Assembly (NCBI GenBank): GCA_963667465.2
Contig: CAXXDN010000001.1
Location: forward strand, 448,001-512,000
Length of the DNA stretch: 64,000 nucleotides
Origin: Dehalococcoidia bacterium
Lineage (GTDB): Bacteria; Chloroflexota; Dehalococcoidia; UBA2979
Direction: 5' to 3'
How positions within the stretch are numbered: the stretch's first letter is position 1; each line of letters starts with the position of its first letter. Below are positions 9,595 to 13,715 of the stretch, piece by piece. The translations under genes and the position numbers were made by a program. Below the pieces are notes generated by a model. It was given only the letters and a program-made list of their open reading frames with translations, searched no databases and was not told where the DNA came from.

Positions 9595-11154
9595 ATGCGC
9601 GCGATCCTGAGCGCCTACGACAAGACCGGCATCGCCGAACTGGCGAAAGGCTTGCACGACCTCGGCTGGGAACTGTTCTCGACCGGCCGCACGCAGGCCG
9701 CGATCGCCGAGGCGGGTGTACCCGTCGAAAGCATCGCCACGATGACGGGCAGTCCCGAGCTGCTCGAGGGGCGTGTGAAGACGCTGCACCCGAAGGTGCA
9801 CGGTGGCCTGCTCGCGCGCCGCGACCGCGAGGACGACGCAGCCGAGCTGGCGAAGCACGGCATCGAGCCTGTCGATCTCGTCGCGGTGAACCTCTATCCG
9901 TTCATCGAGACCGTCAGCGGCACGGACGTGAGCCTCGCCGAGGCGCTCGAGGAGATCGACATCGGCGGCCCGACCATGATCCGCGCCGCCGCCAAGAACC
10001 ACCCATGGGTCATTCCGGTCGTCGATCCTTCCGACTACTCGATGATCCTCGAGGCGTTGCGCGCGGGTGGGCTCGACGCCGGAGCGCGGCGCGCGCTGGC
10101 GGCCAGGGCGTTCGCGCACGTCGCCCACTACGACGCCGCGATCGCCGAGTACCTGCGAGGCGAGGACGACCTGCTGCCGGAGCAGTTGACGGCGGGCCTG
10201 ACGCGCGTCGACGAGCTGCGCTACGGCGAGAACCCGCACCAGCGCGGCGCCTTCTACACCCTCGACTCCGTGCGCGCGCCCGTCGAGGGCATCGGCGGCT
10301 TCGAGCAGCACCACGGCAAGGGGCTTTCGTACGTCAACCTGCTCGACGCGGACGCCGCCTACAACCTGGTGGCGGAGTGTCCGCAGCCCGCGGTGGCGAT
10401 CATCAAGCACACCAACCCCTGCTGCTTCGCCGCCGGCGACGAGCCGATCGCCGCGCTCTATGAGCGCGCTCTGCAGGCGGGCGACGCGATCTCCGCCTAC
10501 GGCGGTATCGTCGCCAGCAACCGCCCGATCGACCTCTCCTACGCGACGGCGCTGCGCGACGTGCTCAGCCCGATCACCGGCGGGCGCATGTTCTTCGAGA
10601 TCGTGATCGCGCCCGGCCACGAGCCGGACGGCCTCGCGCACCTGCAAAAGAAGTCCCGTGACCTGCGCATTCTCACCGTCCCTGCGGGCGACCCGCGCCG
10701 CCCTCGCCTCGAGTTCCGCTCGCTGCGCGGGGGGATGCTGGTCCAGCAATCCGATCTCTCGGAGGAGCTGGACTTCGAGGTCGTTAGCGAGCGGCAGCCG
10801 AGCGAGGCCGAGCTGGCCGACCTGCGGCTCGCCTGGCTTGTCGGCAAGCACGTGAAGTCCAACGCGATCACGCTCGTCAAGGACGGTGTGCTCGTCGGCA
10901 TGGGCGCGGGCCAGCCGAACCGCGTCGAGAGCGCGCGCCTGGCCGTACGCGGTGCGGGCGAGCACACCGCCGGTGCGGCGCTCGCCTCGGACGCGTTCTT
11001 CCCGTTCCCCGACTCGCTCGAGGTCGCCGGCGAGGCCGGCGTCACGACGGCGGCGCACCCGGGCGGCTCGATCCGCGACGAGGACTCGATCGCCGCGGCG
11101 AACGCGCTGGGCATGACCCTCGTCACCACCGGAGCCCGCCACTTCCGCCACTAG
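9595..11154 (+). CDS. purH: Bifunctional AICAR transformylase/IMP cyclohydrolase
   Basis: GRVKTLHP, IDIGGPTMIRAAAKN, LRYGENPHQ, KHTNPC, SDAFFPF, RHFRH. Confidence 0.97.
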   Translation: MRAILSAYDKTGIAELAKGLHDLGWELFSTGRTQAAIAEAGVPVESIATMTGSPELLEGRVKTLHPKVHGGLLARRDREDDAAELAKHGIEPVDLVAVNLYPFIETVSGTDVSLAEALEEIDIGGPTMIRAAAKNHPWVIPVVDPSDYSMILEALRAGGLDAGARRALAARAFAHVAHYDAAIAEYLRGEDDLLPEQLTAGLTRVDELRYGENPHQRGAFYTLDSVRAPVEGIGGFEQHHGKGLSYVNLLDADAAYNLVAECPQPAVAIIKHTNPCCFAAGDEPIAALYERALQAGDAISAYGGIVASNRPIDLSYATALRDVLSPITGGRMFFEIVIAPGHEPDGLAHLQKKSRDLRILTVPAGDPRRPRLEFRSLRGGMLVQQSDLSEELDFEVVSERQPSEAELADLRLAWLVGKHVKSNAITLVKDGVLVGMGAGQPNRVESARLAVRGAGEHTAGAALASDAFFPFPDSLEVAGEAGVTTAAHPGGSIRDEDSIAAANALGMTLVTTGARHFRH

Positions 11155-11176
11155 TTCCGGCCGAGCTGCCTCGACA

Positions 11177-11332
11177 GGCCCCCTCCCTCCTCGGAAGTTT
11201 CGAGGGCGCAGCGACGTCGGGGGGCACTCCGGCCCCCTCTCCCCTCGGAAGTTTCGAGGGCGCAGCGACGTCGGGGGGCAATCCGGCCCCCTCTCCCCTC
11301 GGAAGTTTCGAGTGCGCAGCGACGTCGGGGGG
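11177..11332 (+). repeat. Tandem 54-bp repeat, about 3 copies, interrupted by IS110
   Basis: Unit GGCCCCCTCTCCCCTCGGAAGTTTCGAGGGCGCAGCGACGTCGGGGGGCAATCC starting at 11177, 11231 and 11285; pattern resumes as GGGCAATCCGGCCCCCTC after 12837. Confidence 0.92.
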
Positions 11333-11390
11333 TGTCCCCATCTTCTTCGTCAAGGGTCGCGGGCCGGTGACGGTGGGCAAGGGGAGGCCA

Positions 11391-12605
11391 TCAGGCGGCC
11401 ACGGGCTCGTGTTGCGGGCCCGCGGCCTGGTACGCACGGCGCGAGCGAAGCATGGCGAGGATCACGTCGCAGCGCCGGCGCGCGAGGCAGATGACGGCCG
11501 CGTTGTGCGCCTTCCCCTCGGCCCGCTTGCGGTCGTAGAACGCCCTCGAGGCAGGGTCGCGCAGCGAGGCGAAGGCAGCGAGGAACATCGCGTTCTTGAG
11601 CCGGTGGTTGCCACGCCGGCTGCGGCCCTCGCCGCGGAGGCTGGAGCCGGACTGACGGGTCACGGGCGCGAGTCCGGCGTAGCTGGCGAGTCTCGATCCG
11701 TTTGCAAAGCGGGACCCGTCGCCGATCTCAGCGAGGATCCTCGACCCGGTCCGCGGACCGATGCCCGGAAGCGTGCCGAGGATGCGCCCGAAAGGGTGCG
11801 CGTTGAAGAGCTCCGCGATCTCGGTCTCGAGCCGCTCGCGGCGCTCAAACATGCGGTCGAGTTCGACGACTACCTCGGCGATCACGCGCCCCATCACGGT
11901 CTCGACGGGCACGACGACGGTCTGCGCGTCGAGCGCTTCGGCTACAGCTGCGGCAAGGGCCCTGGCGAGGCGCGGGGAGCGCTTCCGGATGATGCGGGCG
12001 ATGCGGCCGCGGCCGGCCTGGGCCAGCGCTTCGGGCACGGGGTGGGGGGCGAGAAGGTCGCGGACACCCGGATGGTGCAGCCTGGGGCCGAGAACGCGCT
12101 CCAGGGCCGGGGAAACACCCGTCAGTGCGTCACGAAGCCGGTTCGAGAGCCGTGTGGCGTCGGCCGCAAGGTCGGCGTCGTAGCCGTTGAGGACGCGCAA
12201 CTGCGCGAGCAGCTCGTCGTCGCGGGCGTCGAGCCAGTGCACCTGGTGGCGCCGGGTGCGGCCGGTGTCGGCGAGCACGAAGGCGTCGCGGCGGTCGGTC
12301 TTGGCCTCGCCCGGGTAGAGGTCGGCGGCGCGGCGCATCACCAGTCCGGGCACGTAGGCAACGGGAACGCCCCGGCGAGCGGCGACCGCGAGCACGAGGC
12401 TCGCGAGCGAGCCGGGCTGATCCACGACCAGTGCCGGGCTGCCGGTCGACGTCGCGCGGTCGAGCAGGGCCTCGATCTCCGCCTCGTCGTTGGCGACGGC
12501 TCTGGAGAAGAGCGGCGAGCCCGCGGCGTCGAGCACGTCGGCAAAGTGCTCCGCCTTCCCGATGTCGAGGCCGATCCACACGTCGATGTCGTCGGGCGTA
12601 CCCAC
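11391..12605 (-). CDS. IS110 family transposase (bridge recombinase)
   Basis: WIGLDIGK...VVDQPG...EAKTDRRDA DEDD domain; LPGIG, LASYAGLAP, RQSG catalytic Ser region; AAGGGAG RBS before GTG 12605. Confidence 0.96.
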   Translation of the reverse strand: MGTPDDIDVWIGLDIGKAEHFADVLDAAGSPLFSRAVANDEAEIEALLDRATSTGSPALVVDQPGSLASLVLAVAARRGVPVAYVPGLVMRRAADLYPGEAKTDRRDAFVLADTGRTRRHQVHWLDARDDELLAQLRVLNGYDADLAADATRLSNRLRDALTGVSPALERVLGPRLHHPGVRDLLAPHPVPEALAQAGRGRIARIIRKRSPRLARALAAAVAEALDAQTVVVPVETVMGRVIAEVVVELDRMFERRERLETEIAELFNAHPFGRILGTLPGIGPRTGSRILAEIGDGSRFANGSRLASYAGLAPVTRQSGSSLRGEGRSRRGNHRLKNAMFLAAFASLRDPASRAFYDRKRAEGKAHNAAVICLARRRCDVILAMLRSRRAYQAAGPQHEPVAA

Positions 12606-12654
12606 TGTGGCTCCCTTCGGTTGCTCGCCCACTCGTCCGGAAGGCCGCAGGTAC

Positions 12655-12830
12655 GCTCGCCGTCATCCACCTTACGAATCAGCGATCCGCCGCATGTCCC
12701 CATCAGAGGTTCACGCACCGAACAGCGCCGGTGGCAACACCCCCCAGGCCGTCGAGCGACAGGGGGCACTGAGCCATGCCGGCGCTGCCGGACTTCCCGG
12801 TCTCAGACGCTACTGAGGCCGTACGGAGAA
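12655..12830 (-). ncRNA. Putative IS110 bridge RNA (target-binding loop ~12723-12787, donor-binding loop ~12660-12716)
   Basis: Stem CAGCGCCGG/CCGGCGCTG encloses segments matching the target junctions; the second loop has exact matches to both element ends; RNA ends approximate. Confidence 0.8.
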
Positions 12831-12844
12831 AGTAAGGGGGCAAT

Positions 12845-12890
12845 CCGGCCCCCTCCGCCCTCGCGGGGGAGGGCGGGGGTGAGGGGGCGC
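12845..12890. repeat. REP-like GC-rich palindrome (divergent fourth repeat unit)
   Basis: CCGGCCCCCTCCGCCCTCGCGGGGGAGGGCGGGGGTGAGGGGG, an imperfect hairpin resembling the widespread CCCCTCTCCC..GGGAGAGGG..GGGTGAGGG repeats. Confidence 0.55.
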
Positions 12891-12962
12891 CGCGCGGCAG
12901 CGCGGCCAGCGAGGAGCACCGGTTGCCCCGAACGCGTCATAACCCGCTACGATTGGCGCACG

Positions 12963-13715
12963 ATGGCGAACGTCGACCTTGTGCTGCCGGTCTACAACGA
13001 GGAGCTGATCCTCGCGCAGAGCGTCGCGCGCGTTCTCGAATGGACAAACGCGCACCCGGAGCACGAGTGGCGGATCGTCGTCGCCGACAACGCCTCGACG
13101 GACCGAACCTTCCAGATCGCACGCGAGCTGGAGGAGGAGCGCGGCGACGGAGGCGGCGGAGGCTTCGTCGCACTGCACATCCCGGTCAAGGGGCGCGGCA
13201 TCGCGCTGCGTGTCAGCTGGCTGACCTCGCCGGCCGACGTGCTGGCCTACATGGATGTCGATCTCTCGACGGACCTGAAGCACCTGCCGGAGCTGATCGA
13301 CCCGATCGCCGCGGGCGAGGTGGACATCAGCTACGGGACGCGGCTGCACGACGACTCGGAGACGGAGCGCTCGCTGCGCCGCGAGTTCACCTCGAGGACC
13401 TACGTGCAGATCCTGCGGCGGCTGGGGCGGCTCAACGTCACCGATGCGCAGTGCGGGTTCAAGGCGATCGGCCGCGAGCCCGCGCGGGCGCTGCTGCCGC
13501 TGGTGCGCGACACGGGCTGGTTCTTCGACTCCGAGCTGCTGCTGCTGGCGCAGGAGAACGGCTATCGCCTGCGCGAGGTGCCCGTGCGCTGGATCGAGGA
13601 TCGCGACAGCCGCGTCAAGATCCTGCACACGGCGATCGAGGACCTCAAGGGACTGTGGCGGCTGCGCATCGGCGGGGTGCCGCGGGTGCCGCAGCGCGGC
13701 GGCGGCGGCGGCTGA
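12963..13715 (+). CDS. Glycosyltransferase family 2 (dolichyl-phosphate glucosyltransferase-like)
   Basis: VLPVYNEE, VADNASTD, KGRG, YMDVDLST, DAQCGFKA, WFFDSELL. Confidence 0.93.
   Translation: MANVDLVLPVYNEELILAQSVARVLEWTNAHPEHEWRIVVADNASTDRTFQIARELEEERGDGGGGGFVALHIPVKGRGIALRVSWLTSPADVLAYMDVDLSTDLKHLPELIDPIAAGEVDISYGTRLHDDSETERSLRREFTSRTYVQILRRLGRLNVTDAQCGFKAIGREPARALLPLVRDTGWFFDSELLLLAQENGYRLREVPVRWIEDRDSRVKILHTAIEDLKGLWRLRIGGVPRVPQRGGGGG

Follow-up and report, generated by a model that had tools for sequence, protein, structure and literature searches.

A multicopy IS110-group element of a Dehalococcoidia bacterium with the features of a bridge-RNA-guided recombinase and a homopolymer target

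What chooses the target of an insertion sequence whose long non-coding end repeats words from its own termini and from the DNA beside it: an RNA guide, or a recombinase that binds those words as DNA sites? This question is raised by an IS110-group insertion sequence (IS) on the minus strand at positions 11333-12837 of the 64,000-nt stretch of Dehalococcoidia bacterium DNA analysed here (the window, to which plain coordinates refer). A preliminary description had placed an IS110 element with an IS621-type bridge RNA at 11327-12844; the element is there, but that span takes in flanking G's, and the element proper covers 11333-12835 plus a single copy of a CC core (1505 bp = 1503 bp plus one core copy). 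We put at roughly 88% the probability that it is a complete, recently mobile insertion sequence working by bridge-RNA-guided recombination. This estimate draws on its anatomy, its copy number, covariation of the RNA structure, covariation of guides with target and with donor ends, a promoter-like joint and conserved catalytic residues. The main weight is placed on the comparative data and not on motif counts.

The recombinase confirms the IS110 identity proposed for the element. It matches DEDD_Tnp_IS110 (140 bits) and Transposase_20 (84 bits) in Pfam, and the NCBIfam equivalog NF033542, 'IS110 family RNA-guided transposase' (217 bits; cut-off 140). In single-sequence searches of the PDB, only the C-terminal domain aligned with IS621 (E 4.3e-17) and the N-terminal half gave chance matches only; a family profile was therefore needed. 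The profile of 16 family members matched both IS621 (8wt6, E 1.5e-23) and ISCro4 (E 3.9e-22), and aligned D14, D62, D104, D107 and S319 with IS621 residues D11, E60, D102, D105 and S241. All five residues were unchanged in 16/16 family members, the second acidic residue being Asp instead of Glu throughout the clade. The longest open reading frame (ORF) starts at 12632, but the GTG at 12605 is the more likely start, given the ribosome-binding site (RBS) ahead of it and the conservation of ..GGAG..CAGTG in relatives. Upstream of the coding sequence (CDS) lies a left end (LE) of 230 nt (12606-12835), and the right end (RE) is 58 nt (11333-11390), giving the long LE and short RE of the group. On the minus strand the order is 5′ hairpin, target loop, donor loop and CDS, as had been described. 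The features are listed below, with left and right target guides abbreviated LTG and RTG, and left and right donor guides LDG and RDG.

11177..11332, no strand: 54-bp tandem repeat, 2.9 copies (Tandem Repeats Finder), with unit 3 broken by the element
11327-11332: six G's closing the repeat (C's on the minus strand), being the core copy plus the right target, from the sequence and flanks
11333..11390, minus: RE, 58 nt, the same in all three copies; within it the left donor (LD) ...GATGGGGACA, with its terminus at 11333
11348-11353, minus: −35-like TTGACG, inside the RE
11391..12605, minus: recombinase CDS, 404 amino acids (aa), GTG start at 12605, stop at 11391-11393 (ORF list, Pfam, NCBIfam)
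start at 12632, minus: longest ORF for the recombinase, 413 aa
12611-12618, minus: RBS GAAGGGAG, ahead of the GTG at 12605
12650..12719, minus: donor-binding loop; outer stem GGUGCG (12714-12719) with GCGUACC (12650-12656), second stem CCUC/GACGG
12668-12675, minus: RDG, core guide and two more nt, GUAA-GG-UG, in the donor loop
12694-12704, minus: LDG GAUGGGGACAU, in the donor loop
12721..12791, minus: target-binding loop, with an outer stem including CAGCGCCGG/CCGGCGCUG and UGGC/GCCA
12737-12747, minus: RTG, core guide and handshake bases, CUGGGG-GG-UGU, in the target loop
12748-12760, minus: inner hairpin of the target loop
12761-12770, minus: LTG AGUGCCCCC(U), in the target loop
12799..12820, minus: 5′ stem-loop GGCCUCAG-UAGCGU-CUGAGACC, from the fold
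12829..12834, minus: −10-like hexamer TACTTT, 18 nt from the TTGACG of the RE after end joining
12832..12840, minus: left junction, with the first bases TTAC at 12835-12832, core CC at 12837-12836 and the remaining C run of the left target at 12840-12838

Relatives of the element allowed the putative guides to be compared with the sites beside them. Protein matches at E ≤1e-40 were present in 8/41 genomes (own genome included in both numbers; 40 relatives), and a scan limited to one genome for each species brought in 180 relatives. The 80 retained came from Dehalococcoidia metagenome-assembled genomes (MAGs; 81-96% identity) and from many MAGs of Actinomycetota (54-73%). Of these 80 loci, 70 had a recognisable start of the LE as well as the RDG anchor (GTAAGGTGG); six were dropped for lack of a TTAC start and four for lack of an anchor or LE. 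Loop words and flanks were extracted for 73 loci (these 70 and the three own copies). Those tested were the 48 loci, all distinct insertion events, with both 14-nt flanks and an RE end at most two mismatches from the LDG and followed by CC. The LTG matched the left flank at 253/432 positions (shuffled pairings: mean 218.2, maximum 241) and the RTG matched the right flank at 213/336 (mean 200.8, maximum 212), values reached in 0/5000 shuffles in both cases. The preliminary description had named a lack of loop-flank covariation in homologues, and other copies with different ends, as outcomes that would count against it; the covariation was found and the ends are identical in all three copies of this genome.

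Elements of sister genomes, with 80-83% protein identity, kept the donor loop and ends and had different target guides. Their LTGs are AACUGGCCCU, AUUUGGCCCU, AAGUGGCCCU or AAAUGGCCCU, and the left flanks end, in the same order, in ..AACTGGCCCC, ..ATTTGGCCCC, ..AAGTGGCCCC or ..AAATGGCCCC. Their RTGs are CGGGUGG, CAAGUGG or CAGGUGG, and the right targets ACCCC or ACTTG match the RTG bases GGGU or CAAGU. For example, one site has ..AACTGGCCCC to the left of the element and CCACCCC.. to the right, and another has ..ATTTGGCCCC and CCACTTGG.., with left scores of 6-8/9; a site matching the guides of a sister element would read ..AACTGGCC-CC-ACCCC... Among the 39 events of the poly-C class, the left run was mostly 4 (12 events) or 5 (23) and the right run 6 (16) or 7 (16), and the original run would have been 9-10 in 26/39 and 8-12 in 34/39. 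Together with runs of 9-11 for the three own copies, this upholds the homopolymer target that had been proposed.

We also compared the donor guides with the ends of the element, locating the RE by its TTGAC box and so independently of the LDG. Across 37 distinct combinations, LDG and RE matched at 320/370 positions (shuffles: mean 277.1, maximum 302; 0/5000 reached this score), and the observed score is lowered by four rows with a mis-extracted LDG that were left in. Variants that change together in LDG and RE are GAUGGGGACA, GAUAGGGACA, CACGGGGACA, GACAGGAACA, AAUAGAAACA and GACAGGGACA. The RDG bases GUAA-GG are complementary to CC-TTAC in all sequences, without variation, and so provide complementarity only.

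The boundaries and core follow from empty and occupied sites in relatives. The flanks of loci L021 and L028 hold an empty site, ..AACTGGCCCCACCCCC.., and the homologous occupied loci L044 and L058 read ..AACTGGCCCC, then TTAC...., then CCACCCCC... The two differ by the element and a single CC, which gives TTAC...GGGGACA as the element and CC as its core, with nothing else duplicated; insertion without target-site duplication beyond the core is thus seen in relatives (flanks of L021/L028 versus L044). By the same comparison, the circle joint would be ...GGGGACA-CC-TTAC..., as the preliminary description had suggested, and both core and joint also fit three of the four guides. CC flanks both ends in all three own copies, and the core is matched in the LTG, RTG and RDG; the LDG has UG at that place. 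An element start at CTTAC, or a core of AC or CA, was considered and rejected, as these conflict with the right junction ACA-CC-A.. and the four-C empty site.

The RNA structure was examined in an alignment (A1) of 63 left ends, comprising 62 distinct LEs and that of the window. The tested structure consisted of the stems framing the two loops only (27 pairs in six helices). Pairing was retained in 98.7% of 1699 cells compared with 92.8% in shuffles, and double changes affected 13 pairs (6.4 in shuffles) and 86 cells; 0/500 shuffles equalled this on all five measures. When partners were slid by 1-3 columns as a control, pairing fell to 35-58% (maximum 58.4%). The stem 12723-31/12779-87 that had been noted earlier is real, and is part of a 10-pair helix in which seven pairs have compensatory changes in relatives. 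The segment before the first loop contains a hairpin of at least 6 bp in 63/63 left ends, with compensation such as CUCAG/CUGAG versus CUGGG/CCCGG. Covariation in the aligned sequences therefore bears out a predicted LE RNA made of a 5′ stem-loop and two stem-loops with large internal loops. Guide-guide pairs proposed by RNAalifold (columns 107-109/132-134 and 176-182/209-218) were kept out of the tested structure, as they were taken to arise from the core or ends that the guides have in common. Taken with the covariation of guides with flanks and of guides with ends, these stems support the IS621-type bridge-RNA architecture that had been claimed for this locus.

Some relatives are rearranged or degraded. 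In two related genomes, the first ~35 nt of the LE were replaced at L056, L057, L100 and L126 (= L023, L030, L036, L041, L037), with loss of TTAC... and half of the 5′ hairpin. The replacing sequence is common to the copies over more than 100 nt upstream, and may belong to a larger composite or fused element. Degraded relatives are L022/L060, L025/L038 (genome G001), L026/L033 (G015) and L031/L039; among them, one copy lacks the LE start as well as the 5′ half of its target loop, and others have a recombinase split into two matches or two in-frame TGA codons.

Joining of the ends would also create a promoter. All 54/54 joints examined have TTGACA (44) or TTGACG (10) in the RE, with a spacer of 17 nt (34) or 18 nt (20) to a −10-like hexamer at LE positions 2-7 (TACCTT in 48, TACTTT in 3, TACCAT in 2 and TACGGT in 1). 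The match is at the level of consensus, and the RE −35 and LE −10 would form a promoter only on the circle, with a transcription start predicted near 12822.

The genome, two contigs of 2,966,484 bp in total, has three copies of the element at three different sites (100, 100 and 99% identical), with identical ends, intact ORFs and unrelated flanks. Their junctions on the transposase strand are as follows.

Copy 1: ..GGATTGCCCCC, then the element TTAC...GGGGACA, then CCCCCCGACG..
Copy 2: ..GCCACCCCCCC, then the element TTAC...ACA, then CCCCCCGCTT..
Copy 3: ..GCGCAGCCCCC, then the element TTAC...ACA, then CCCCCCCGCAGG..

Each side of the three copies carries 5-7 C's and, given a shared CC core, the sites before insertion would have been C runs of 9, 11 and 10. 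Only seven unoccupied C or G runs of at least 9 are present in the 2,966,484 bp, with lengths of 9, 9, 10, 11, 13, 13 and 15. In public run X1, a contig corresponding to 11327-12840 has a depth of 22.4 and the flanking contigs 8.9 and 7.1, as expected of a three-copy repeat. The seven free runs (genome G000, C1:41879, 750278, 860996 and 946404; C2:222705, 478027 and 631483) are candidate further targets. The run at C1:750278 adjoins a copy of a second, different IS110-family element of ~1.51 kb, which has 10 copies that are 99.2-99.9% identical (G000 L005-L014, e.g. L005:651-2157). This second element has DEDD_Tnp_IS110 and Transposase_20 domains, a long LE and a very short RE, and lies in palindromic repeats resembling repetitive extragenic palindromic (REP) sequences at ..CACCCCCNCC, then CTAATGGGG...GGGGTGT, then CTCTCCCC.., apparently with a CT core.

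The window copy breaks the third unit of the 54-bp repeat, downstream of a 519-aa ORF at 9595-11154, and its right flank (12836-12900 region) runs on into a CCCTC../GGGAGGG palindrome. Contigs of runs X2 and X3 connect 11298 to 12865 through AGA, forming a CCCCCTCTCCCC-AGA-GGGGGAGGG hairpin without this IS copy; they represent a different arrangement of the repeat region in another strain and do not count as a clean empty site. The joints listed in run X9 have short sides (20-24) and 90% likeness. For the window copy, we rejected a G6 target of the kind found in repeat units 1 and 2, since it leaves three C's at the right junction unexplained.

These features fit a cycle whose transcription, circle formation and chemistry are modelled on IS621. 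Excision would give a circle joined at ...GGGGACA-CC-TTAC..., uniting the −35 box of the RE with the −10 box of the LE, and the junction promoter would transcribe an RNA of ~170-180 nt from the left end. The first internal loop of this RNA would read the target: on its 5′ side, ..GUGCCCCC repeats the left target and CC core; on its 3′ side, CUGGGG-GG complements the core and right target; and the UGU that follows could pair with the terminal ACA of the donor once strands have been exchanged. The second loop would read the element's own joined ends, with GAUGGGGACA as the sequence of the RE end and GUAA-GG as the complement of CC-TTAC. A tetramer of the DEDD/Ser recombinase would then exchange strands at the CC core and insert the circle, without duplication and in one fixed orientation, into a C run of ~9-10 bases. 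As for the handshake bases, the UGU of the target loop pairs with the donor's ACA, and the UG of the donor loop pairs with the CA of its own donor, its match to the CC of the target being partial. The RTG and RDG core guides are each followed by UG; with a donor ..CA and a target ..CC, insertion would involve three pairs before and three after top-strand exchange, so that base pairing would provide no built-in bias of insertion over excision.

Several observations weigh against bridge-RNA-guided recombination by this element, or loosen its fit. In the protein, the N-terminal alignment to IS621 is weak (11.2 bits). Among the guides, the invariance of the RDG in 63/63 left ends is partly due to selection because the RDG region served as the anchor, and the LDG ends in ACA-UG, which does not match the CC core (U, then G, opposite bottom-strand G's). 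Poly-C events show a poor fit between the LTG and the bases preceding the C run, mostly 4-6/9, and in the retargeted classes the flank has one C more than the LTG, which would be explained only if the conserved U pairs as U·G with the second core position. The right flanks of L055, L101 and L049 do not match their RTG. At the window's own site, local repeat units 1 and 2 are G6, while occupation of the third would have required G9; the public-run contigs yielded no empty allele of this site, leaving G9 unconfirmed. The public runs are assembled Logan contigs only, and no RNA reads, transcription start or circle junction were seen in them. The single-sequence fold was no better than shuffles (z = −1.48). 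In the minimum free energy (MFE) fold, the C5 of the LTG pairs with the G6 of the RTG and closes the target loop; the two guides are mutually complementary over 5-6 nt (C5/G6) because the target is a homopolymer. Finally, no Rfam 15 family matched 10500-13500 (E up to 1). The right flanks of L055, L101 and L049, together with that of L024, begin CC-TT.. or CC-TC.., with the RTG unmatched and the left flank matched, and these four insertions may be half-matched or off-target events.

Of the rival explanations, the least unlikely is that the bridge-RNA anatomy is real and the element now inactive, for example through the Glu-to-Asp change, the self-pairing target loop or handshake pairing with its own donor. 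Each could be a lesion: D62 stands where IS621 has E60, CCCCC/GGGGGG pairing shuts the target loop in the MFE fold, and pairing of the UG after the RDG core guide with the donor's CA blocks strand exchange in IS621, according to a passage in Hiraizumi et al. (PMC11208158). Yet all three features are common to the clade and multicopy in several genomes, with D62 in 16/16 and the RDG/UG region the same in all 63 left ends (partly through the anchor selection just described). Genomes G011 and G014 each have five identical-scoring copies, and the three copies here, 99-100% identical, lie at three sites with intact ORFs. Occurring clade-wide in multicopy elements, the suspect features are thus better seen as family traits of mobile elements than as lesions, and we consider inactivity very improbable.

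A second explanation is that the repeated motifs of the left end are DNA sites, such as sub-terminal repeats bound by the transposase, and that the protein chooses the target with no RNA guides. All motifs of the preliminary description were found where it had placed them, and three of its matches, namely TGTCCCCATC with the element end, CACCTTAC with the circle junction and ACACCCCCC with the other junction, would equally arise from a protein that recognises these words both in the LE and at the ends. TGTCCCCATC occurs twice in the window (11333-11342 and 12695-12704), against 0.04 expected by chance and with two matches in 0/100 shuffles. ACACCCCCC, at 12737-12745 on the plus strand and 11327-11335 on the minus strand, has a modest excess over chance (0.32 expected; at least two matches in 3/100 shuffles). 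CACCTTAC, present once at 12668-12675, is weak alone (0.16 expected; at least one match in 14/100 shuffles) and gains meaning as the complement of the RE-core-LE joint. The fourth motif, AGGGGGCACT, is present as described but has no excess over chance when one mismatch is allowed (3 matches versus 3.36 expected), and the 9/10 match to the flank reported for it had counted the 'A' at 12835, which is the element's own first base. An explanation by DNA sites alone also accords with the lack of any observed RNA in the public-run contigs. However, DNA sites are not required to keep the flanking stems paired by compensatory changes (13 pairs, 86 cells), and the loop words change with the flanking target, which lies outside the element. 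The promoter-like joint is directed into the LE, and RNA is required in vitro for IS621, according to part of the report on it (PMC11208160). We therefore regard target choice by protein alone as very unlikely. That the element is instead of the IS1111 group or seekRNA type, with a guide RNA downstream of the recombinase gene, is scarcely credible: the protein family is the same, but the RE measures just 58 nt, the two loops occupy the 230-nt LE ahead of the CDS, and reading of the ends gave no sign of long sub-terminal inverted repeats.

Among known systems, the element stands close to IS621 of E. coli, whose bridge recombinase and RNA have been described (Durrant et al. 2024, PMC11208160; Hiraizumi et al. 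2024, PMC11208158). The two share a long LE and short RE, the RE contributing the −35 box and the LE the −10 box (for IS621, PMC11208158), and a 5′ hairpin followed by the target loop and then the donor loop. In both, the LTG and LDG are in the top-strand sense including the core, the RTG and RDG are complementary to the core and right half, and the nucleotides that follow the RTG core pair with the donor terminus. Both also have a 2-nt core on each side without duplication, and a catalytic Ser in the Tnp domain. In contrast, the core is CT in IS621 and CC here, and the protein is distant, with E60 in IS621 and Asp here. The homopolymer target, the mutually complementary LTG and RTG, and an LDG without a core match also set the present element apart from IS621. 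The handshake also differs: a passage in PMC11208158 gives the rule that handshake guides pair with non-cognate DNA after exchange and not with cognate DNA before, and part of another account (PMC13626964) describes one pair before and three after exchange in IS621, said to drive insertion and suppress excision, whereas both dinucleotides here are UG and would give three before and three after. These departures lack an explanation, but as details they do not contradict the kind.

The closest named element found is ISArsp5, from a plasmid of Arthrobacter sp. FB24 (NC_008537), with 51.5% protein identity over 97% of the query. It shares an LE start of TTACC, the RTG region CCGGGGGGUGUUG, an RE with TTGACG and a C-run right flank; its LDG and RE end (..ATAGAGGC) differ, and its left flank ends ..CCCCG. 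ISCro4/IS622 is a distant orthologue of the same family by its profile match (PDB 9t56).

The element is therefore an ordinary but well-supported member of a kind described in 2024. The preliminary description had called it a potentially new programmable orthologue; it is an orthologue of the bridge-RNA kind, but the novelty was overstated, since the kind is already known and NCBIfam automatically names the protein RNA-guided. Our literature search found no paper linking IS110 to homopolymer targets, although supplementary tables of the bridge-RNA papers may list such targets. More tentatively, and with considerable doubt, the element may represent a widespread Actinomycetota/Chloroflexota clade of bridge recombinases, for which a bare C9-10 homopolymer with a CC core would be the default address. 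The self-closing target loop (C5/G6), twin UG handshakes and Asp could then reflect a variant control logic, in which slippage of the hypermutable tract sets target availability, insertion splits the tract and so confers self-immunity, and directionality is not set by handshake pairing.

ISCro4/IS622 bridge recombinases are reportedly used for genome rearrangement (10.1101/2025.05.14.653916). The element adds a cleanly documented natural orthologue to the bridge-recombinase family, and its CC core, Asp variant and symmetric handshake bases are differences from IS621 and ISCro4 that tool builders could test. Its sister elements, at 80-88% protein identity, amount to a natural experiment, having changed both halves of the target loop and landed in matching new sites, which supports programmability from sequence data alone. 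For the biology of this genome, the element is an insertion sequence seeking long G/C homopolymers, which are rare here (seven free and three occupied sites).

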